DNA of 64,000 bases from Candidatus Bathyarchaeota archaeon (GCA_963806535.1 CAWDYC010000003.1:160001-224000); one strand, 5' to 3'. Positions 5,858 through 33,909 are shown, numbered from the stretch's first letter. Program-made: numbers and translations. The notes: generated from the sequence alone by a model not told the origin.

Positions 5858-6922
5858 ATGAGAAAAATGTCGCTTCATGAAGCCATGCTTTATGAAAAGC
5901 AAGCTGAAAACAAAGTAAAATGCTGTTTATGCGCCCGACGCTGCCTCATAAACGATGATGGGCAAGGATTCTGTTTAGTAAGAAAAAACCAAGGCGGCAC
6001 ACTCTACTCACTTAATTATGCCAAAGCAGTTTCCGCCGGCGTCGACCCGATTAGCAAAAAACCACTTTCACATTTCAACCCAGGCGCATTAGTTATGTCT
6101 GTTGCGGCGGCAGGCTGCAATTTCCGCTGCCAATTCTGTGACAACTGGATGATAAGCCAAGACAAAGAAATCTCCGGCAAGCTTTTTCCTCCAGAAGAAG
6201 TAGTCAAGTCTGCTCTGGATAACCAATGCCAAGGAATAAGCTACACATACACTGAACCAACCATTTTCATGGAGTACGCATATGACACAGCTAAGCTTGC
6301 GCATGAAAAGGGTTTGTTTAACACATTTGTCACGAACGGGTACATGACGCCTGAAGCCGTAAAAACTATCGCGCCTTATCTGGATGCAGTAACAGTTGAT
6401 TTTAAAGGCGGAGCAGATCCCGACTTCTACAAGTCCGTAATGGCCGTGCCCAGTGTTGAACCAATTTATGAAAGCCTAAAAGAACTAAAGCTAAACGGCG
6501 TCCACATAGAGATTACCAATTTGATTGTTCCGAAAACAGGCGACTCCATGGACAGAATACGGGCAATGGCAATTTGGATCAGAGATTACTTGGGCAAAGA
6601 CACGCCTTTTCATCTGCTTCGTTTTCATCCAGAATATAAATTGACGACAATTCCCGCGACCAGCGTTGAGGAAATGGAAAGAGCACTATTGACCGCAAAG
6701 AACCAAGGACTAAATTATGTTTACATTGGAAACGTACCTGGACACCCTGGTGAGAACACTTATTGCCCAAACTGTGATACAGCAGTTATAAAACGCAACA
6801 GCTTCGACATCATCCAGTGGAACCTAACTCCAGACATGCGATGCCCAGTCTGTGGAAACCAAATCCCAATCAAAGGCAAAGTCTACCAAAACAACCTACG
6901 CTACCCCTACTCACTTTTTTAG
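5858..6922 (+). CDS. amrS: AmmeMemoRadiSam system radical SAM enzyme (PFL-activase-like)
   Basis: VKCCLCARRC, DPISKKPLSHF, GCNFRCQFCDNW (CX3CX2C), YTYTEP, YVYIGNVPG, C-terminal CPxC pairs. Confidence 0.85.
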   Translation: MRKMSLHEAMLYEKQAENKVKCCLCARRCLINDDGQGFCLVRKNQGGTLYSLNYAKAVSAGVDPISKKPLSHFNPGALVMSVAAAGCNFRCQFCDNWMISQDKEISGKLFPPEEVVKSALDNQCQGISYTYTEPTIFMEYAYDTAKLAHEKGLFNTFVTNGYMTPEAVKTIAPYLDAVTVDFKGGADPDFYKSVMAVPSVEPIYESLKELKLNGVHIEITNLIVPKTGDSMDRIRAMAIWIRDYLGKDTPFHLLRFHPEYKLTTIPATSVEEMERALLTAKNQGLNYVYIGNVPGHPGENTYCPNCDTAVIKRNSFDIIQWNLTPDMRCPVCGNQIPIKGKVYQNNLRYPYSLF

Positions 6923-15346: not shown

Positions 15347-15694
15347 TCAGCTACTCTGGTTAGAACAGGATCAGTTGATATGTCAACGACTGGCACAATC
15401 ATTTTTTCTTTAGTTTCAATCGTCTGCGCATATTTTGGCATAAGCGAGTAACCTACAAAGGTCCAGTAAACCTTGCCGTTTTCTAAGAGTTCTTTAGCCA
15501 CTACAGCTGTTGAAGCGGGAAGCGGAAAATACAGGAAGACAACGCCGTCAACCCAGTATAGCCCAGCTAGTTTGCCGCCTGCTATCACCGATGTGAATCT
15601 TGCGATGTCTTCAGGCGTGTTGAAAAAAGTTTTTTCCATAATTACAATTTTCTTAAAAGGCTCATATGTAGATTGATACTTCAGGTTTACTCAT
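15322..15694 (-). CDS. hypothetical protein
   Basis: ORF 15322..15639, extended to ATG 15694 through one frameshift; overlaps ribK. Confidence 0.65.
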
Positions 15695-15811
15695 AACCTT
15701 ACACCAATTAGTTAGCTATTGTGTCGGCGGCTCCCTTTTAATTTTGTCATAAATTTAGAAAAAGTTATAGCGTAGGCGAACATTAAGCCTTCACTAACAC
15801 ATACATCTTGG

Positions 15812-24517: not shown

Positions 24518-24735
24518 AAAACTGACCAACCCCAACTTCTTAAAGATACTCAGCTTAATTGCATTTTCCACTTCACTCGAAATTACTCCGTCCTGTGTGC
24601 CATATCTTTCAAATTGATGTTTGGATTTTTTGAATACAAACTCTTCTAAAAGTTGAGAAACAAAATTCTAATATTAACCAATGCAATTTCTTAATCCAAA
24701 CAGCTTAAATTGGGCATAACATAAGCAAACTGTGC

Positions 24736-24810
24736 GGGCCAATCGTCTAGCCTGGTTAGGACGTTGGCTTTACACGCCAAAGGTCGCCGGTTCAACTCCG
24801 GCTCGGCCCA
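24736..24810 (+). tRNA. tRNA-Val (anticodon TAC)
   Basis: GGGCCAA..TCGGCCCA acceptor stem (one A-C mismatch), D-arm, anticodon arm TTGGC-TTTACAC-GCCAA, T-arm GCCGG-TTCAACT-CCGGC. Confidence 0.95.
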
Positions 24811-25062
24811 CTCCTGATTCCCAAAAGCAGCTTGATTTAAGGTTTTTTGATTTTGTTGACCGTTACTAAATTCCGTAACGCCGTTACAGTTTTCCGTAAC
24901 GTTTAACCCAGAGTTATCAAGCAAAGCAAGTGCATCGCGCATTTGTGCTTTTTTGGCTTTTATGCGATGACGCAATACACGACTATAATCTGCATCAAAG
25001 CTTTCAGGGGACTCTAAGAACTTGTAGTTCGTATTTTGCTTAGCATTTTTTCCATTCCTCAA
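24767..25062 (-). CDS. integrase N-terminal fragment (intN)
   Basis: Reads into the att core as WAEPELNRRPLACKA, the same peptide that starts intC. Confidence 0.8.
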
Positions 25063-25565
25063 TTAATGCAAGAAGCTAATCGTCTATTTAACACCTTGAT
25101 TGTACGCATTTTTACGCTATTAACTTTTTACGGTGTTTAATCACCGTGCGGAAGCACACCGCCTTTTAACTCAGAGGTGAAAAGGCATCAGTTGGCTTCC
25201 CTGTTTAGGGGCCCATTTTGCTTTGTTGTTTCTACGACGTTCAAAAGCCGTGTAGAAAGCAACAGTGCCACTCAGGCTTGAATAGCAAAAAGACAAAACA
25301 ACTTGCCAAAACCTTATTTGTGCTAATAATCCTCAAAACGTAATGCTTATAAAGTAAAGTGTAGTGTACATATATTAAAACAAACGCTACCTATAGAGTT
25401 AAGTGTCCGCCGCTCTAAAAGTGCGCCTTGTTAATGAAACATGGAAGGCTTAAAAAATGTGCGGACACGAGAAATATACAACAAAAAAAAGTAAAATTTT
25501 TACAACTAAGCTGGTTTTTTCATCCAGATTAAATGACACCGAACTTTCATTTGGAATGACGCCGA

Positions 25566-26375
25566 ATGCAGAGCTCACCGCTGCGAAAAAGGAGGAACAA
25601 GAGCATGCATAATATTTGGATGCGTAAAATGGAAAACTTTGACAAGGGCTTGGTTAGCTTCCAAAAATTTGATTTAGGATTTATTGGCAATCAAGTTTCC
25701 GTTGCTATTAAGACCTACGATAAGGAAGGGCTTAATCATCAGGGACCACTTGAGAATATTATGGGTCTTGTAGCAGAATTGGCTTTTGAAGAATGGCTAA
25801 AAAGTTTTGGTGGAGTTCGTGGAAAGGATTACGAATGGAACGAACGCAGAGAGGATTATTGGAACAATGACCCAAGATCTTGGGATTTCAGGTTGCTCAA
25901 GAATGGTTTAACTTTTGAAATCGGAGCGGCAAAACCTAATCATCATTTGGCCGTAATGAAAGACGCAGCGCATAAAAAAGAATCTAATTATTTTGTTCAG
26001 GTAAGGATCATTTGGTTTAACTGTAAAATCAAGGTTTTAGATAAATGGTACGTTATTAACGCCAACTCATATACTCCCTTGGAAATAAAGGGCTCAGAAG
26101 AAATAAAATCCCTTGAAGCAGCCCAAGGAATAATCCAGAATGACACAATAGGCGAGGCGCAGATCTGTGGCTTCGATAAAGTCGGCACGATTGTTAAACA
26201 AGAGAATGGTTGGGTGTTTAGCAAAGCAGGCCAAAGGGAAACACCTTTCTCAAACGGCTTCATGAAGGAATTAAGCAATTTGTGCACAAGAAGCGATTTA
26301 GCAGCCATCATAAGGCGTGCCCTCGGTCTCCGCGAAGATAACAAAGAAAGTGAAGCACGACCTTACGGCATTTAA
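25566..26375 (+). CDS. hypothetical protein, possible PD-(D/E)xK restriction-endonuclease-like nuclease
   Basis: GLVAELAF...WDFRL..GLTFEIG spacing resembles the nuclease core (canonical Lys not evident); start uncertain. Confidence 0.45.
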   Translation: MQSSPLRKRRNKSMHNIWMRKMENFDKGLVSFQKFDLGFIGNQVSVAIKTYDKEGLNHQGPLENIMGLVAELAFEEWLKSFGGVRGKDYEWNERREDYWNNDPRSWDFRLLKNGLTFEIGAAKPNHHLAVMKDAAHKKESNYFVQVRIIWFNCKIKVLDKWYVINANSYTPLEIKGSEEIKSLEAAQGIIQNDTIGEAQICGFDKVGTIVKQENGWVFSKAGQRETPFSNGFMKELSNLCTRSDLAAIIRRALGLREDNKESEARPYGI

Positions 26376-26426
26376 AAGCCGTGTAAAACTGAGCGCGCCA
26401 TTTTGAAAAAATACAATCTACTGTTG

Positions 26427-26975
26427 CTAAAGTAATGTTGACAAATATGAGAAATTAGCCACGACCAAGGATATCACAAGTAAGGAAAGGAATAAGACTA
26501 AGAACGTTAAAGGGATCCAACGCTCAACCAAAGTAAGCTGTGGATATCTCGTTTTTTGGCTTCCCTGGTTTAAGTAATCCCATTCTTTGGCAAATGCAGC
26601 CACAGGCAATCTTTTTTCCATTTCGTGAATTACTTTGAATTTTGCTTCACTCAGTACTCTATAACATTTAATACTGTTATTCCAAATCAGACAAAAAACA
26701 ATTCCAGAAATAGACACGAGGGCAACCCACCAAAAGTACATGTTGCCAATTGGTTTGCTAACCTGAGATAATACACCAATTATCGTTATCAAAGCCGAAA
26801 CAAGGGTTAAATAAAACGTATTTGATTTGGAACGACGCTCAGAATTATTATCAGCCATTTCAACATATAATTTATACTGCTCAAGCAAATGGTCGTTAAA
26901 TTTCTCGCCATAAGTCTTTTCCTCAATTGGAAAAAGCTTAGTTTCTTTGATACCCGTCATCTCGTTGTTAGTCAT
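26427..26975 (-). CDS. 3-TM membrane protein (RipA/octameric-membrane-protein-like), putative effector
   Basis: LLEQYKLYVEMAD..SERR..N.FY motif, three hydrophobic helices, KFKVIHEMEKRLP; 4 bp downstream of the TIR gene. Confidence 0.65.
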   Translation of the reverse strand: MTNNEMTGIKETKLFPIEEKTYGEKFNDHLLEQYKLYVEMADNNSERRSKSNTFYLTLVSALITIIGVLSQVSKPIGNMYFWWVALVSISGIVFCLIWNNSIKCYRVLSEAKFKVIHEMEKRLPVAAFAKEWDYLNQGSQKTRYPQLTLVERWIPLTFLVLFLSLLVISLVVANFSYLSTLL

Positions 26976-26979
26976 CTTT

Positions 26980-27462
26980 TCACGGAGAATTAATTTCTCG
27001 GTCTATATCTTTTAAATTCCAATTCAATATAGGTGCTTTGTTGTCTTTCATAGCTTCTGGAATAGCATGATTTTTATCACGATTAATTCTAACACCAATG
27101 ACCTTCTTTCCTTGTCTGTAGGCTTCATCTATTTCCCAGTTTACCGCATTCCTCTCTGCGGTCTTTTCACCTATCATAACCACAACTACGCTCGTCTGAG
27201 CAATTCTTTGTTTGCAGTTTGTCCTCCATTTTTCATCAAATGGTTCTTTAACTGAGTAGTCCCTGAACTCAAGGTCATAATTATCGTTCTTTGCCTGCGA
27301 GCGCAAAAGGTCTACTTGAGCTTCATCATCAACATGAAAACTTATGAAAACGTTACGAAGCCGAGCTCGTTCTGCCTCATCAACAGTCCTATCAAAAGCT
27401 GCCTCTGATTCTCCAACACCTTTTGATGAACCAAGGCTATACCCGAAACTACCCCCACCCAT
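26980..27462 (-). CDS. ThsB-like TIR-domain protein (MTH538/DUF1863-like) with Gly-rich N-terminal extension
   Basis: NVFISF, DYS, SVVVVMIG, VNWEI (catalytic Glu), GKKVIGV; ATG 27462 follows a GGTGG SD-like motif, giving MGGGSFGY. Confidence 0.85.
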   Translation of the reverse strand: MGGGSFGYSLGSSKGVGESEAAFDRTVDEAERARLRNVFISFHVDDEAQVDLLRSQAKNDNYDLEFRDYSVKEPFDEKWRTNCKQRIAQTSVVVVMIGEKTAERNAVNWEIDEAYRQGKKVIGVRINRDKNHAIPEAMKDNKAPILNWNLKDIDREINSP

Positions 27463-27519
27463 GATTACCACCATTTTGTTAAAGTCATGTTATCGCTTTT
27501 AAGGTTTTTAAGACTTACC

Positions 27520-28158
27520 TTAGCGGTGATTTGAAGATTTTGAAAGACCATTTTCTGCAGCTATGCGTTCTTTGCAAGAAATACATTCTCCGCACGATTT
27601 CTCGGTCCCAGCATGGCAAGAGTAGGTCAAATTAAGCGGCAATCCATGTTTCCGAGCAAGCATTAAAGAATCAATCTTATCCAAATTTATCAAAGGAGCA
27701 AGAATTGTAATGTTTATGCCTAAGGCAAGGCTCAGCGTTTTTTGTGTTTGTGCCAAGAAATCCTTTGTTTGATCGGGAAATATTGGATTTGCTAAGATAC
27801 CCGTTGCAACAACGTAAGCTCCCTTATCATATCCATAGGCTGCGCCGAAGGTTAGGAAAAGTAGATTCCGCGTAGGAGTGAAGGCTTCCTTTTCAATATC
27901 CAAATCTTTGTTTGTTAGACCGCTTGGTACAATTCTGCCAAAGTCGTGTGCGTTTATTCTTTCGGGAGTTAACTTAAGATAATTACAGATTTTCTGACAG
28001 GATGACCATTCCTCTTCACAGGCAAGTTGTCCATAATCTACAAATAATGGAAAAACTCTGTGCCCTTTCATTTGTAATTGTTGCATAATAACAGAGGAGT
28101 CAACTCCACCCGAGCAAAGAACTACGACTCTCAATTCCTCTTCCTCATATAATTCCAA
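27520..28158 (-). CDS. QueC-family (7-cyano-7-deazaguanine synthase-like; Cap9-like) ATP pyrophosphatase
   Basis: SGGVDS PP-loop, DYGQ, PTRNL, PD, SCH..CGECISC Zn motif. Confidence 0.9.
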   Translation of the reverse strand: MELYEEEELRVVVLCSGGVDSSVIMQQLQMKGHRVFPLFVDYGQLACEEEWSSCQKICNYLKLTPERINAHDFGRIVPSGLTNKDLDIEKEAFTPTRNLLFLTFGAAYGYDKGAYVVATGILANPIFPDQTKDFLAQTQKTLSLALGINITILAPLINLDKIDSLMLARKHGLPLNLTYSCHAGTEKSCGECISCKERIAAENGLSKSSNHR

Positions 28159-28832
28159 ACAGCCATGTCAAATGTTGCCATTAGTAAGCCTCTCTCCTCG
28201 CACAGTTCTTTGAGAATATCCTCAAGCTCAAGGTATATTCTGGGAGTAACAGATTTTATCTGCAGTCCATTAAGCGCGTTAATCTTTGTCAGAAATGAAA
28301 TAATGTGTGTGTCAATTATTGCGAGTTTTTTAGAATAACCTATATTTCTCAAAAAATGAGATGCTTCCTTAAGACCAATTCCAGAAATATTCTTAATTAG
28401 TGATGATCTTGCATCTTCCTCTGAACTAGAATGAGCCAAAACGCAATGCAACCATGTTTCCTCAGAAGATATGATTGTTGCTGACTTTGTAATATTTTTG
28501 GAGCGAACATTAGGGAAACGATATTTTCTTAGTTCACCATCGGTTTTCTTGGGAAAATAAATTGGCTTTGAAAGCTCTTTAGCAATTATCTTGTCGGCTA
28601 AAGGATTATCAGCTATCCATTCAACGGACAGATAGCCTCGTCTTATCAAATGCCTTACTGCTGAAAAAGCAAGCTCATATGGAACATTACTTGACAAGAT
28701 ACAAAGACATAGTTCATGCCACAAATCAGTTTCTGTCATAAGGTCCCATTTTCGATTTTCAAAGTGGAGAGCTGGTATTGTTGAGTATTCTAACAAAACG
28801 CCGTTAAATGTTTCATTATCTGCAATGAGCAT
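28131..28832 (-). CDS. N-glycosylase/DNA lyase (8-oxoG glycosylase OGG-like; Cap11-like)
   Basis: ELCLCILS, YRFPN.R, HhH motif GIGLKEASHFLRNIG, AIIDTHI. Confidence 0.85.
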   Translation of the reverse strand: MLIADNETFNGVLLEYSTIPALHFENRKWDLMTETDLWHELCLCILSSNVPYELAFSAVRHLIRRGYLSVEWIADNPLADKIIAKELSKPIYFPKKTDGELRKYRFPNVRSKNITKSATIISSEETWLHCVLAHSSSEEDARSSLIKNISGIGLKEASHFLRNIGYSKKLAIIDTHIISFLTKINALNGLQIKSVTPRIYLELEDILKELCEERGLLMATFDMAVWNYMRKRN

Positions 28833-28946
28833 TGGTTGAATCTCGGTTTTTATCTTTACATTTAGAATGCGCTAAAAATATATATCCTTAACTATTTTTC
28901 ATTTAATTAATTTTGATCACTTTTTATTGCATTATAGATAAATATT

Positions 28947-29957
28947 CTAAAATTTATCTATTCTATTAAGAATATCGTCACCAATTTGAACCTTCAGAGA
29001 AGCACGTAAATTGTCATAACGTATCATATTCTGCATTTTGACAACAAAGTCTTGATAATATAGCAGATTATGCAATAAAGCCCTGTCTAAATAGGCTGAT
29101 GATGCCAATTTAGGATTGCTGCAGATTCTACATTTGCAATTAATCAAATCAAGATGTGAAAAATCTTTTATTGTGTCGTCTCCGGGGTCCAAAATATGTT
29201 CGATCCAATCTAAGCTGTCGAAACTGTCAGAACCGCAATACGCATAAATTAACATTGAAATAGGGTTTCCACAACCTAAGACATGTAAAAGAAACCTTTC
29301 ATCACTTTTGTCAAGAATGTGTCTGATTTCAGTAAGAGTTTCCGCTCTTTCCAAAATGCCTTTACCGCAATCCCTTTCAGAAACAGCAATACCACAACAC
29401 AAACTGGAATACTCATCAATAAAATCACTAACTAATGCCAATTGATGGTCAACTGATTTTCCATGAAGGATCGGCAGAAAAATATTTCCACCACAGAAGG
29501 CTGATGATTCAACCGCTGCTTGCACTACATTTTCTTGGTATTGTTTAACGTTCTTGGTATTTTCCGCGGTTGGAAGAATATCGAAGCCGGTAAAGATATC
29601 CATCGTGACCTGAGAAATAACGCTTTTGTATGCTTTCATATCCCAAGTTGGATCATTCTTATTATCGCTCTCAAATACGCCGCTATCCAAAAGTAAAAAG
29701 CCTTGTTTTCTAAATTCAGCGATGCTTTGCTTAAGTTTTTCTTTTTCTTCGAGTTTGTTAATATCATAAGCTGAAAGCAATAATCGCGGATACTTATTAT
29801 GTTTTAGCATGTAAAAAAGTTCAGTCAAAGAAAATCGGTTTTTAGTACTGGACAACGATGGAAAATAGGTTGGAGTATTGAAGACCTTATTTTCAAATTT
29901 TATCTCACAAATCCTTGCAAGTTTCCCATTTTTATGTTGTATTGTTGCTTTATTCAA
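28947..29957 (-). CDS. tRNA-guanine transglycosylase (TGT)-fold protein (Cap10/DpdA-like)
   Basis: TPTYFP, LLDSGVFE, PILHG, HVLGCG, FDS, CKCRIC...HN Zn site; no C-terminal PUA domains. Confidence 0.85.
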   Translation of the reverse strand: MNKATIQHKNGKLARICEIKFENKVFNTPTYFPSLSSTKNRFSLTELFYMLKHNKYPRLLLSAYDINKLEEKEKLKQSIAEFRKQGFLLLDSGVFESDNKNDPTWDMKAYKSVISQVTMDIFTGFDILPTAENTKNVKQYQENVVQAAVESSAFCGGNIFLPILHGKSVDHQLALVSDFIDEYSSLCCGIAVSERDCGKGILERAETLTEIRHILDKSDERFLLHVLGCGNPISMLIYAYCGSDSFDSLDWIEHILDPGDDTIKDFSHLDLINCKCRICSNPKLASSAYLDRALLHNLLYYQDFVVKMQNMIRYDNLRASLKVQIGDDILNRIDKF

Positions 29958-30106
29958 CTAAGGCACTCCAGATCCTTATTTCAATAGTTCCTATTTGTAG
30001 GGTTATATTATAAAGAATTAACTACTAAATAGAATTATACAAAGAAACTTACCTTGAAAAGTTAGAAATAAATGATTTACTAAAGGATAGTCTGTGTGGA
30101 AGACAT

Positions 30107-30580
30107 TTGAAGAGGCTAACTTTAAGCGTAGCTCAAACAGCAATTTTCGCTTCTATTTATGCTGTTTCATCGATTTTGCTTGGGCCACTGGGATATTCAT
30201 GGATTCAGTTACGGATTGGAGAAGCCTTGACTCCCCTGCCGCTACTTTTTGGAATTCCTGCAATGGCTGGATTAACCATCGGGTGTTTTGTTACCAATTT
30301 AACGAGCCCAGTGGGTTTGCCTGACATGGTTTTCGGGCCCTTACTGACTCTAATTGCCGCATTTCTTTCTTGGAAATTAACATTTGGCAAACGCATTTTA
30401 GCTTGTTTATATCCGGTTATCATAAATGCAATAGGCGTAAGTGCCTATCTTTCATCTTTCTATGGCGTCCCATACTTGGTCACCGTTTTGACCGTTGGCG
30501 CTGGAGAGTTTGTTGCTGCAGTTATTATTGGATATCCAACATTATTGGCGTTAAGAAAATTTATGGGTAATAAAAAGTAG
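30107..30580 (+). CDS. QueT-family queuosine-precursor transporter
   Basis: IQLRIGEAL..LP, GLTIGCFV.N..SP.G..D..FG signature; ~5 TM helices. Confidence 0.85.
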   Translation: MKRLTLSVAQTAIFASIYAVSSILLGPLGYSWIQLRIGEALTPLPLLFGIPAMAGLTIGCFVTNLTSPVGLPDMVFGPLLTLIAAFLSWKLTFGKRILACLYPVIINAIGVSAYLSSFYGVPYLVTVLTVGAGEFVAAVIIGYPTLLALRKFMGNKK

Positions 30581-30712
30581 AGATTCTTTTGTTTCGTCGT
30601 GACTTTACTCAGGCCTCAAATCCCTCGCTCACTCAATGAGGGTACGTCATAGTGAGTTGTGCACGTGATTGAACACCGTGCAAAAGCGTAGAGCCGTGAG
30701 CTTTGGAGCCAT

Positions 30713-31236
30713 CTATGAAATCTGACTAATACATTCCTGCAACAGTTGCCGATAAGTTGCTTGCCAACCGTTTGAAGGGAATGGTATAGATATTTTGTTC
30801 AGTAATCTCTCGCCAAAACCGGCTTCTTCAAGTGCAAGCTTGACTGGGGCAAATAAATTATTTTTCAAAATAATGATTCTTTCTGGCTGAAGGCTTCTAA
30901 TATCATTTACAAGCCTTGGAATTTGATCTTTTAGAACTCTGTTTTTTCCGCAATAGGCAACTTGTTGACTGGTCTATAGCTGGCATCTATCAAGAAGAAT
31001 CCTCTTGATTGGAACTCTTTTAGCTGGGTGTTTTTGTCAGTGCCGACAGGTAATTTGCCACAAGGAATTTTCAATGCTTTCATTGTTTCCCTGAATAAAC
31101 AGCCACGACCGGTTGCTGACTCAAAATAAAAGTATCCGCCGCCTTCGGGTGGTGACTCGCCAATAAGAAGGAATTCAATGTCTTTGCCTATTCGTCGTGG
31201 GTCATATTTGTCCCTTGCTTCAATATAGTCTTGCAT
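30713..31236 (-). CDS. uracil-DNA glycosylase superfamily protein (frameshift in A-run near 30945)
   Basis: LLIGESPP..G.YFY, GFFLID; second frame ..LQPERIIIL...IPFPS.GWQ to TAG at 30713. Confidence 0.65.
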
Positions 31237-31625
31237 GTCAACAGCTACGGCTTCTGATTTATTAGATTTAGCGGATAAATACGATGATTCTTTGTCGCCA
31301 ACTTGTTTAATCTTAATAGCCTATGTACTTGTACGGTGATTGAACACCGTGAAGAAGCATAGGCCGTAGTAAAAAGCGGAGATTAGCATTAACCGATCAA
31401 GTCAAACATATTTGAAGCCTAATATGTTTCAGGGAGCTTGCATTAGCACCTTAAAGCACTGTTGTGTTTCTGTACGGTGTTCAAACACCGTGGCTAAACA
31501 TAGGCTAAGGACAAAGGCGACGGAAGACCAAGCATGGTCGAATCCTACTTAAGCTATGATCCAGTTGAACTGCTAAAATATTCGACCGGCTTTCTCGACC
31601 GAAAAAATCAAAATGAGTCATTTTT

Positions 31626-31829
31626 TTACTTATGCCAGAGCCTACTTAATAGATAGATTACAGCGGTAGCTGCAAGCAGCACTGGAACTATGAACACATT
31701 AGCTTCCATCCACTGCCAAATTGGTCCCGGTAACCCAAACATACCTATGCCATAACCAGCTAAGACTACAATCCAAACAAAACTATACAGGGCGATTACT
31801 GCAATCCATACCTTCATGAGCTTACGCAT
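31626..31829 (-). CDS. small 2-TM membrane protein
   Basis: MRKLMKVWIAVIALYSFVW...; two hydrophobic segments. Confidence 0.55.
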   Translation of the reverse strand: MRKLMKVWIAVIALYSFVWIVVLAGYGIGMFGLPGPIWQWMEANVFIVPVLLAATAVIYLLSRLWHK

Positions 31830-31917
31830 TTTCTCACTTTTGAAACCACTTATAATCCATAGGTTATCCATCAACCACATAAAAGCTTTTGACTTATCCG
31901 TGCAAGAGGACACAAGG

Positions 31918-32067
31918 TTGCCGAAGCGATATGTTAACATAAAATTGCCTGTTGAGCTTGCAGACGAAGTTGACAAAATCGTGGATAAGAAGCTTCTGGG
32001 ATACCGCAGCAGAGGAGAATTTGTAGCGGAAGCGGTGAGAGACAAGCTAATCCAAGTTAAAAAATAA
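31918..32067 (+). CDS. ribbon-helix-helix (CopG-like) DNA-binding protein
   Basis: YVNIKLPVELADEVDKIV..GYRSRGEFVAEAVR; TTG start after GAGGA. Confidence 0.8.
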   Translation: MPKRYVNIKLPVELADEVDKIVDKKLLGYRSRGEFVAEAVRDKLIQVKK

Positions 32068-32331
32068 TTAACCTAAACGACCTTACAGACTATACATGGC
32101 TTTTAAACGCCGTAAAAGATACTAAAACAAAATTGGTCCTTAAAGAGCAAAATCAGCCGATTGCACTTTTGTACCTTTAGGCAAAAAAGCGGTGTGCTCC
32201 TGTACGGTGTTCGATCACCGTAAACAAAATCTGCGTTCCCTCAGCGTCTAATCTTATTCAATTGCGATGAACCGAGTGTTTAGTCAAAATACTTACCCTA
32301 AAGTCTTATATTAAGAAAGCACAACTAAAAA

Positions 32332-32892
32332 TTGATGAGCCTACCTACACTTGATCCAGCAGAGTTTGAAACTCTACGATCCACTTTAGTAAGCACTTAC
32401 AACTCACAAACTACCGCTCATGTAGGATATATAATAGCTTTTGCCATAGGCATCGCAGCCATTCTTTACCAAATTGACTTTAAGACTTTCTTTAAAGACT
32501 ACCCATCAAAAAAGCAGCGTTATCCTTTATTTTATGTTCCATTAAGTGGTCTAATTGGAGGAATCGTCTTCCTTTTTTACCGCGTAATTTTCTGGGCTTA
32601 TATGAGTACGTATGTCTTACGTGTACCCGCTACACAAGTTGCAGCATTGCTTGCTGCGTATGCAAGTGATCCAACTGTCACTGAGATTTATGCGATTCAA
32701 CTTAGCTGCACTCAAAAATTTGTTGGAACGCACAGTTTAGCCAGCACTTTTTACTCTTTTGCAAGTAATTCTCTTTTAGATTCTACGTTATTATTTTTGG
32801 GGTTTTCCATCATTGCGTTCTTAATAACTTTGCTATTAGACTACATTTTGTACAAAAAGAAAGATACACCCGTTAAGAAGAACAACAACTAA
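32332..32892 (+). CDS. hypothetical 3-TM membrane protein
   Basis: 186-aa ORF with three hydrophobic helices. Confidence 0.6.
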   Translation: MMSLPTLDPAEFETLRSTLVSTYNSQTTAHVGYIIAFAIGIAAILYQIDFKTFFKDYPSKKQRYPLFYVPLSGLIGGIVFLFYRVIFWAYMSTYVLRVPATQVAALLAAYASDPTVTEIYAIQLSCTQKFVGTHSLASTFYSFASNSLLDSTLLFLGFSIIAFLITLLLDYILYKKKDTPVKKNNN

Positions 32893-32977: not shown

Positions 32978-33859
32978 TCAGTTTACTCCATTTTCCATTG
33001 TAGCTAAAGCACTCAAGGTTCGGTCCCTAAGCTCTTTGAACGATGGGCTCCAGTAATGGCGTATAAATATGGACGGTGGTATTCTGCCTTGCAACAAATC
33101 CACCTCTTCTTTTATCAGACCGTTTCTAACCATGAATGTGCCAAAGCTGTCTCTAAGTTCATTTATTCTACACCGCATTTTTTTTCGTTGCAACCGTTTG
33201 AGTATTGCATTGTAACCGACTGGTTGGCTTTTTGCAATCTCATCAATTAGGTTTTTTGGCACAATCGATATGTACACATTCTTCGTACCGCGTAAGAACA
33301 GCTTTTTGAATTGAAAGTGCTCCAAAAGCCCATCAGTATTAAGGTAGCAGTCTAACTTGCCTTCTTTTGACAACTCGATTATTTTGTTAAACGAATTTAC
33401 AGCCTCTTCCTTACGCAAACCACTTAGACGCAAATATTCTAAAAGCACCTTTTCCTCAGGTTTAAGCAAAGGCTGTACAGCAGATACCACTCCCATAAAT
33501 CACTATTATGGTTATTGTACAATCGACTGAAAGAGGAGAAGGCATCCCGCTTACGCCACTTAATCCCATAACTTTTTAGAGCTGCCCTGAACTCCTCATG
33601 AAAACCAAGATACTTACAAAGCGCAATCAAAGACTTAATTGAATTATCCCTTAATGACTCTGGAATTGCATCGATATCCCTGAGATTGCCGTATAAAATG
33701 TGATTGTACTTTTTCGTATAGGTCATGATGGTGTGAGCATAGGACTTTGCATATTTTTTGAAAACCCACACCTTAAATTCTGCCCAGTCAAGGTCGCGTA
33801 TGCCTGCTTCGAGGAGCGCTTTACACGCCAAAGGTCGCCGGTTCAACTCCGGCTCGGCC
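32978..33859 (-). CDS. tyrosine integrase catalytic fragment (intC; frameshift near 33495)
   Basis: SGLR..EA (Arg), RGTK (Lys), ELR, LLQGR, RHY (Tyr); begins within attR. Confidence 0.88.
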
Positions 33860-33909
33860 AACCACCATTCCTGCTAAAGGCTGAATCAAGAAGGTTTAGG
33901 AAAAGACTA

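Follow-up and report, generated by a model that had tools for sequence, protein, structure and literature searches.

Introduction

The described systems closest to the locus reported here are the dif modules of Acinetobacter plasmids (pdif, XerC/XerD) and the gene cassettes of integrons. The locus consists of eight short palindromes spread among the genes of a small tRNA-integrated element in the genome of a Candidatus Bathyarchaeota archaeon (GCA_963806535.1), of which we analysed a stretch of 64,000 nucleotides, hereafter the window (CAWDYC010000003.1:160001-224000, i.e., positions 160001 to 224000 of contig C3); positions below are those of the window unless a contig, genome or locus is named. 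On the Acinetobacter plasmids, the accessory modules of a small mobile replicon are framed by short dyads whose centre is 6 bp, and what lies between the same sites differs from one related replicon to another; the present locus is like them in both respects. Unlike dif modules, the sites described here have symmetric arms of 7-9 bp, form gene-free clusters and belong to an archaeal host and a tRNA-integrating carrier, and they have no counterpart in the host chromosome by regular expression (regex) or weight matrix, in an assembly that is 91.75% complete and from which a dif site may be missing.

An integron has an IntI-type recombinase next to its array together with an attI site, and its attC sites are long imperfect hairpins that follow each of the co-oriented cassettes. 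As in integrons, single-gene inserts here have a site after their stop codon, and the variable unit is a gene plus one site. Unlike integrons, the element has neither IntI nor attI, and its genes lie in both orientations; unlike attC, which is long and defined by structure, the sites are short sequence-conserved dyads that form weak hairpins.

Other known systems invite comparison as well. The operators of archaeal viruses and plasmids that are bound by ribbon-helix-helix (RHH) proteins, such as SSV1 F55 and CopG, are like the present case in that an RHH protein of about 50 amino acids (aa) is encoded on an element with an SSV-type integrase and the site is present in several copies, but here regulator and sites do not co-occur across relatives. 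Repetitive extragenic palindromes and the mosaic elements built from them (REP/BIME, with their RAYT transposases), as well as miniature inverted-repeat transposable elements (MITEs), are likewise intergenic palindromes, often placed after genes, in inverted pairs and in clusters, with presence/absence polymorphism; unlike REP/BIME and RAYT, the palindromes here have no chromosomal copies, and the end hairpins of the host's Y1 transposase units are unrelated to them. The linkers of lambdoid phages, finally, are short conserved sequences between exchangeable modules that may supply homology for recombination, whereas the sites here are dyads, occur in up to eight copies per element and keep their symmetry through change.

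Small integrative elements with defence genes are known hot spots of gene turnover, and the mode of cargo swapping in archaea is so far little understood; the titles and abstracts consulted contained no report of such sites in archaeal elements. The locus offers a sharply defined cis element that belongs to one element family, is conserved across species and stands at every module border, with varied cargo in relatives, and it makes cassette exchange in archaea testable by reads and simple binding assays. It also exposes conserved non-coding blocks (X, Y and Z) common to elements with different integrases. If the sites were merely regulatory or selfish repeats, they would add only modestly to what is catalogued for archaeal mobile elements. 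To judge from the sequence comparisons below, the sites are real and specific to the element family, and they are most likely recognised as double-stranded DNA by a factor acting in trans; that they also act as recombination joints between modules is the reading that we rank first, though tentatively and with less than even weight.

In the host genome the palindromes are confined to one element

Reading the sequence from 24800 to 32600, we found all eight palindromes at the coordinates given in an earlier account of the window made from its sequence alone (the sequence-only reading), which had sorted them into type A, TACGGTG-N6-CACCGTR (A1 to A5), and type B, TACGRCR-N6-AGCCRTG (B1 to B3, the last in reverse orientation). 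The type A pattern is exact at 25129, 31332, 31473 and 32203 but not at 30661 (A2), a degenerate copy whose left arm lacks one base and which the pattern search, the genome regex and the weight matrix all missed. With up to two mismatches allowed, the type A pattern gave eight strand-matches, i.e., four sites, against a mean of 0.27 and a maximum of 3 in shuffled sequences, none of the 100 reaching eight. The proposed type B pattern fits by regex at 25233, 26364 and 32095, and the proposed spacer, TTYRAW, fits all eight sites in one orientation.

The host genome (G000) comprises 2.95 Mb in 12 contigs, and a regex over all of them places both types only at C3:185129-192222, i.e., 25129-32222 of the window, so that the earlier remark that none had been noticed outside the element holds for the whole assembly. 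The matrix scan proposed in the sequence-only reading, here trained on 20 sites from foreign genomes, returned seven matches of at least 14 bits, all of them in the element; the rest of the genome gave none at this threshold, compared with three, three and one in three shuffled genomes. A looser dyad regex yielded four further palindromes in the genome, with unrelated arms. A B-like dyad at C3:336333 has unrelated flanks and was taken for chance.

All eight sites are intergenic, except that B2 overlaps the stop codon of the gene at 25566-26375. The distance from stop codon to site is 33 nt for A2 and 28 nt for B3, and in relatives 31 nt at L053:1406 and 26 nt at G123:5810. The layout of the element agrees with the earlier description of sites at module borders, in the order nuclease-like gene, Dpd/TIR genes with QueT, UDG-like gene, and the pair of a transmembrane (TM) protein and an RHH protein.

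Gene content between the sites differs among related elements

The strict dyad ACGGTG-N6-CACCGT was searched in 332 genomes of the family. Site clusters were found only in G000 (four strict sites), G019 (four) and G123 (three), while G149 holds one strict and one B-like site. Strict matches in 14 other genomes came as one or two each with unrelated spacers, and a reversed control pattern matched 13 genomes. When one genome per species was scanned across all prokaryotes, clusters appeared only in the records of G019 and G123, and of the 17 loci, 14 had one match each and belonged to unrelated bacteria or a haloarchaeon. A metagenome scan gave 31 loci, of which ten were compared by BLAST (six related, four unrelated) and four more are copies of the G019 element, the other 17 being judged by site count and G+C only; the related short contigs are L046/L053, L050, L056 and L072. 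Clusters of the palindromes are so far confined to related elements in three further species of the genus and to a few metagenome contigs. Four single matches on viral contigs were rejected, these contigs having 56-61% G+C and no clusters.

The cargo of these elements differs. G019 carries a 5.6 kb element in a tRNA-Arg gene, bounded by 44-nt attachment (att) repeats, with eight sites distributed between the N-terminal integrase part, int(N), an AbrB-like gene with the gene of a 269-aa protein, an HNH gene, a gene for a 152-aa protein with a tRNA-Ser, and the C-terminal part, int(C). Sites a to c of this element lie between integrase and AbrB, c ending 47 nt before the AbrB start, and the pairs d-e and f-g are 58 and 82 bp apart. 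G123 has a type I restriction-modification system and the TM and RHH pair, with five sites, adjoining the integrase stop codon; G149 has two sites among genes for proteins of 346, 322 and 245 aa; and L053 encodes a 103-aa zinc-ribbon membrane protein. Cases in which the same sites enclose different genes, as the sequence-only reading had suggested looking for, were found in G019, G123, G149, L050, L053, L056 and L072, and from these layouts their occurrence is a fact. Two integrase subfamilies with different tRNA targets (Val and Arg) carry the same sites.

Two further observations concern these relatives. In G019, a 59-nt near-palindrome rich in GTGTACACA (L010 13331-13389) stands just upstream of the 152-aa RHH-like gene and is probably the operator of that gene itself. 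In G149 (L012 11941-13034), the C-terminal half of an integrase lies directly upstream of an intact tRNA-Val, and a second att copy follows 2.6 kb downstream (15662-15699), which suggests that this tRNA-Val carries tandem or remnant elements.

Junctions and breakpoints

In a three-way alignment, the lone G149 site continues on its left as the window does before A2, with block X, and on its right as the window does after A3, with block Z. The junction thus falls inside a site, and it shows that the window holds a 671-bp insert made up of the UDG-like gene and one site copy; A2 and A3, at its two ends, are direct copies with the same spacer. L053 presents a comparable arrangement, with two direct sites of identical 20-base cores and almost identical near flanks, 523 bp apart, around the one 103-aa gene. 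Both the UDG-like gene between A2 and A3 and the one-gene insert of L053 fit the gain or loss of a gene plus one site.

If the sites are recombination joints, the eight palindromes would be copies of one double-stranded dyad site, the hallmark of a small tRNA-integrating family in one Bathyarchaeia genus. Recognition would be sequence-specific, by a factor that the host or a helper element provides in trans and that is distinct from both the RHH protein and the SSV-type integrase of the element. The sites would join exchangeable blocks, namely the nuclease-like gene, the Dpd/TIR block, the UDG-like gene, the TM and RHH pair as well as the integrase block. Where two direct copies recombine, a gene plus one site would be added or removed, and inverted copies would bracket larger blocks. 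We infer that a protein binds the sites, that exchange is site-specific and does not proceed by short-homology recombination, and that it is ongoing. The confinement of the sites to these elements, their position right behind stop codons, the inverted site groups around the integrase block, the arm symmetry kept through change and the conservation of the sequence also count in favour of this reading.

The sequence-only reading had proposed an array like those of integrons or pdif plasmids. Its structural side is borne out by the module borders, the varied cargo and the junction inside a site, but no integron- or Xer-type recombinase could be linked to the sites. In its strict form, an archaeal counterpart of dif modules and integron cassettes, a recombinase acting in trans would insert, excise and invert defence genes and the integrase block by way of the 20-bp dyads, and the lineages of G098 and G110 would use the same framework of X/Y blocks and GCTTCTG-type motifs with other dyad specificities. 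We consider this strict mechanism unlikely; what weight it has is a share of that given to recombination joints in general.

A number of observations weigh against the sites being recombination joints. Breakpoints unrelated to the sites, which the sequence-only reading had named as evidence that would speak against it, occur in at least four cases, with the junction of the UDG-like indel inside a site as the opposite case. An indel of the 186-aa gene starts about 45 nt beyond A5 by comparison with G123; the HNH gene lies between Y and the flank of a B site in G019, within the linker, and past a B-like site in L072; the block of the 152-aa gene and tRNA-Ser ends about 90 nt from site g in G019 and is placed otherwise in L056; and no palindrome marks the left edge of the Dpd block in G110. 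Closely related backbones, e.g., that of G020, are without any sites, and the spacer between integrase and AbrB measures 82 nt in G020, with no sites, versus 300 nt with three sites in G019. Gene-free site clusters with sites 45-82 bp apart, such as a-b-c in G019, are not predicted by a simple cassette model, and spacers vary among the sites within one element. Ordinary recombination deleting the DNA between repeats of 16-20 bp would yield the same G149 junction. A shufflon would have segments between inverted sites in alternative orientations within a population; the three independent assemblies of the G019-type element are collinear. The window's own copy is decaying, with a frameshift in the integrase, a broken UDG-like gene and a damaged A2. 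As no protein family besides the integrase is shared among the elements, no recombinase can be named; and the scans of G000 found no chromosomal site like the palindromes, which would be odd for a host DNA-binding enzyme.

Breakpoints away from the sites are also what one would see if the palindromes were regulatory or architectural sites (operators, insulators or terminator-associated sites) of a trans-acting DNA-binding protein and modules were swapped through patch homology only, an alternative that we rate as possible though rather unlikely. A 20-bp dyad with an A+T-rich centre is typical of dimer binding, clusters occupy divergent promoter regions (A1/B1 between integrase and nuclease-like gene, sites a to c before AbrB in G019), the flanks behave as a sequence motif and not as a site-specific stem, and the hairpins are weak. 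Yet no regulator is common to the site-bearing elements, sites are also found where convergent genes end and across a stop codon, and the orthologous promoter region of G020 does without sites. L056 moreover has variant symmetric arms beside canonical ones in a single element, and the host chromosome has no such sites at all.

Anatomy of the sites

The site consensus is roughly T-K-YACGGTG-WWY/RWW-CACCGTR-M-A, with the slash at the centre. The conserved unit exceeds 20 bp, as T occupies position -2 in 48 of 62 half-sites, and motifs like GCTTCTG / CAGAAGC flank the sites on one side or both; this similarity of flanks gives the sites an orientation. Comparison of sites with their flanks brings out inverted relationships: A1 against A5 (57 nt, 74% identity), A3 against A4 (43 nt, 77%, 141 bp from start to start) and B2 against B3 (23 nt, 91%). 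The left 125-bp end with A1 and B1 (104 bp apart) mirrors B3 and A5 (108 bp apart), and in both the window and G019 inverted site groups bracket the integrase block as it would lie in the excised circle.

Inverted pairs and tight clusters (A3/A4 here, d-e and f-g in G019) also suggest selfish palindromic repeats of the MITE or REP/BIME kind, which would multiply in the intergenic DNA of the element and reach module borders as a by-product. Together A3 and A4 make up a unit of 191 bp whose inverted ends measure 43 nt, some conserved backbones have sites and others lack them (G019 vs. G020; none, one or two in the gap between X and Y), and copies are near-identical across species despite diverged flanks. 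Against this, the G000 chromosome has no copies, G019, G123 and G149 have no strict sites outside elements, no target duplication was seen by eye, no autonomous partner turned up in the collection scans, and the unit A3-Z-A4 is kept as a whole in G149. Nor do the host's own transposases fit: Y1_Tnp matches in three copies of 121.2 bits each (C3:355938-356300, C4:112617-112979 and C8:17991-18353, the C3 and C8 copies identical over 486 bp), and the GC-rich hairpins at the ends of the IS200-like unit on C3 bear no relation to the palindromes. A selfish origin therefore appears to us improbable, if by no means far-fetched.

The symmetry of the arms is maintained through sequence change. At arm pair 8-17 the counts are 21 UA, five CG, one GC and one UG, with none broken. 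Double changes occur in five of nine arm pairs, a number that 34 of 500 shuffles reach, and for the number of pair types 13 of 500 do so; since the sites are related by descent, these statistics give only modest support. The orthologous site after the integrase stop codon exists in three distinct symmetric arm versions, in G019, L053 and L056. The sites are conserved about as well as the best islands within flanks that are only about 70% identical, which argues for recognition of the sequence.

Symmetric arm changes would equally be expected of sites that act as folded single strands, whether as RNA hairpins (termination, processing or stability) or as attC-like DNA hairpins, and many sites do stand just after stop codons. 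In single-strand folding, canonical sites gave stems of 6-7 bp with -5.5 to -6.1 kcal/mol, B2 gave -4.9 (z -0.85) and B3 -2.0 (z -0.49); longer stems are possible at A3 and B1 (-13.1 and -9.6 kcal/mol), and A4 with its flanks reaches -8.5. The hairpins of six of the eight folded sites thus lie between -2.0 and -6.1 kcal/mol, i.e., the canonical stems are short and weak and those of B2 and B3 weaker still. An extended hairpin was rejected, flank complementarity being no higher within sites than between sites (4.8 of 16 positions vs. 5.06 with shuffled partners); at this shuffled level the flanks are a sequence motif and not a stem private to each site, with no pairing beyond the shared consensus. 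The strand that would carry a U-G pair in place of a C-A mismatch does not track the direction of the neighbouring gene, the arms are conserved in sequence and not in pairing alone, and Rfam has no match here besides the tRNA. We regard folded strands as very unlikely to be the functional form.

Candidate recognition factors

An all-versus-all comparison of open reading frames (ORFs) found the integrase to be the only protein family common to the site-bearing elements, so any sequence-specific binder must come from outside the element. No link between a Xer recombinase and the sites was found in the ORFs of the element. The only integrase match by Pfam is Phage_integr_3, with no IntI-type gene among these ORFs, and all six PF00589 matches in the genome lie outside the element.

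The sequence-only reading had taken inverted arms around a 6-bp spacer to be the geometry of tyrosine-recombinase sites. Archaeal dif sites are described in PMC2958812 as near-perfect inverted repeats of the form 11-6-11; the sites here have a 6-bp centre between arms of 7 bp, to which the conserved T at -2 is added. This geometry and the bracketing of the integrase block by site groups would be consistent with core or arm sites of the SSV-type integrase, or with dif-like sites for host XerA as in pdif. Neither version is supported by the distribution of the sites: integrase family and sites do not co-occur, and no dif-like counterpart was found in the host assembly. Among 12 integrase-relative loci only two, in G123 and G149, have sites; a recurring 7-6-7 palindrome was absent from the seven of these loci that were checked; and the integrase of G020 is 78% identical to that of G123 and uses the same tRNA-Val without any sites. 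The window and G019, conversely, share sites despite different tRNA targets. The att core comprises the 3' part of the tRNA, starting with the anticodon loop, and bears no sequence resemblance to the sites; a different dyad, CGTTAC-N8-GTAACG, adjoins it. Since the 92%-complete host genome contains nothing site-like outside the element, mimicry of a chromosomal dif is most improbable. We accordingly attach very little probability to a role of either known recombinase type.

The remaining candidate inside the element was its 50-aa RHH protein, for which the sequence-only reading had considered the sites as operators. The RHH gene belongs to the element, a gene 92% identical is present in G123, each arm is nearly palindromic, and the arm spacing is as expected for a dimer of dimers; SSV1 F55, a small RHH protein, reportedly binds several promoters of its virus. 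Co-occurrence already contradicts the idea, and we hold it to be scarcely credible: sites occur without the protein and homologues of the protein without sites. No RHH homologue was found by tblastn, at E up to 10, in the 20-kb site-bearing loci of G019 and G149. Besides G123, 13 further genomes of the genus have homologues 74-90% identical, and none of them has a strict dyad with a related spacer, G100 and G101 having one each with an unrelated spacer; eleven RHH loci, with 1.5 kb on each side, contained no dyad sites and only four non-dyad matches of a loose regex, in three loci. In G149 the related site is on a different contig from the RHH homologue, in the C1 element. In both the window and G123, sites lie downstream of the RHH gene and not in its promoter region.

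Conserved non-coding blocks and the dyad near att

Three conserved non-coding blocks accompany the sites, X to the left of A2, Z between A3 and A4, and Y to the right of A4 (Table 1). The blocks recur in at least nine elements of the genus; X and Y are found in G110, G098, G126, G020 and G017, and the integrase of G098 is a different, unsplit one next to a tRNA-Cys. Between X and Y, G098 and G110 have other palindromes and G020 has none, X and Y being adjacent. A search for X and Y in the genus gave matches at E<=0.01 in 15 of 120 genomes, and six of the seven low-scoring loci that were read proved to be chance. The blocks may be an origin, a regulatory hub or an RNA. Within Y, GGTCGAAT and ATTCGACC form an inverted pair separated by about 38 nt. 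A small ORF in Y (MVE...) was rejected as a gene, as it has stops or frame changes in G149, G098, G126, G110 and L053.

The dyad CGTTAC-N8-GTAACG forms tandem 21-nt repeats 50-90 nt from the att core, within the coding region for the integrase N-terminus. It may represent integrase-related binding sites or a repeated peptide motif.

The host element and its cargo

The sites lie inside a 9.05 kb insert in a tRNA-Val gene, bounded by 45-nt att repeats identical at 44 of 45 positions (Table 1). A split gene is the usual state of an SSV-type integrase once integrated. The ORF of the N-terminal part (24691-25062) runs antisense to the tRNA end and extends into the tRNA, and near 33483 a 1-nt deletion, seen by comparison with G123, shifts the frame of the C-terminal half; this copy of the element looks immobilised and decaying.

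Table 1. Sites, non-coding blocks and genes of the element (window coordinates unless a locus is named).
Feature	Position	Strand	Remarks
tRNA-Val(TAC), integration target	24736..24811	+	last 45 nt = attL 24767-24811
Integrase N-terminal part, split SSV-type	24812..25062	-	homologous to int(N) of G019 and G020
CGTTAC-N8-GTAACG repeats	24860-24901; L010 9366-9410; L106 ~5985-6020		in window, G019, G020, L016
Site A1	25129..25148		pattern, matrix, inverted repeat with A5
Site B1	25233..25252		core of longer imperfect palindrome; regex, matrix
Nuclease-like gene, predicted PD-(D/E)xK-type fold	25605..26375 (ORF from 25566)	+	between B1 and B2; predicted model
Site B2	26364..26383		overlaps nuclease-like gene stop; 44 nt from 8xMP stop; regex, matrix
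Defence-type block	26427..30580	both	minus: 8xMP, ThsB-like TIR, QueC, Ogg-HhH, TGT (DpdA-like); plus: QueT
Block X	30605..30655		conserved non-coding
Site A2	30661..30680		degenerate, left arm minus one base
UDG-like gene, broken into two ORFs (break 30868-30931)	30713..31236	-	part of 671-bp insert
Site A3	31332..31351		pattern, regex, matrix
Block Z, between A3 and A4	31352..31472		conserved non-coding
Site A4	31473..31492		inverted vs. A3; pattern, regex, matrix
Block Y	31520..31600		conserved non-coding
Small membrane-protein gene	~31626-31832	-	divergent from RHH gene
RHH gene, 50 aa, TTG start	31918..32067	+
Site B3	32095..32114		inverted vs. B2; regex, matrix
Site A5	32203..32222		inverted vs. 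A1; pattern, regex, matrix
Membrane-protein gene, 186 aa	32332..32892	+	missing at corresponding place in G123
Integrase C-terminal part, Phage_integr_3	32978..33817	-	ORFs to 33861; Pfam
attR	33818..33862	+	44/45 identical to attL
Block copies in other loci	L010 11840-12240; L103 9270-9520 and 10917-10973; L104 9570-9910; L106 9400-9600

The predicted model of the nuclease-like protein (256-269 aa) best matches I-Ssp6803I (Z 7.7 over 116 aligned residues), and next come the Holliday-junction resolvases Hje and Hjc (Z 6.4-6.8); with every Z below 8, the resemblance to a PD-(D/E)xK nuclease has moderate support. The search of related loci with this protein found no relative, and among 331 other genomes two have relatives of the gene, with no sites around either. 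The 269-aa proteins of the window and G019 show no similarity by BLASTP, and in a protein atlas both fall near phage proteins of no common family, which we take as a lead only. The UDG-like protein has one partial relative among 119 other genomes.

The defence-type block is shared with G110 (L103 5180-9246), at 72% nucleotide identity over 4102 nt, and its border there has other palindromes. Within it, 7-deazaguanine DNA-modification genes are joined to a pair of TIR and membrane-protein genes.

By Rfam, the tRNA is the sole match in the stretch, besides two far sub-threshold rows due to chance. A small ORF at 25457-25612 (51 aa) lies upstream of the nuclease-like gene, and its apparent G019 counterpart is a pair of 27-aa ORFs (L010 10133-10299); both putative small ORFs carry a G-x-x-x-P-x-E-like motif.

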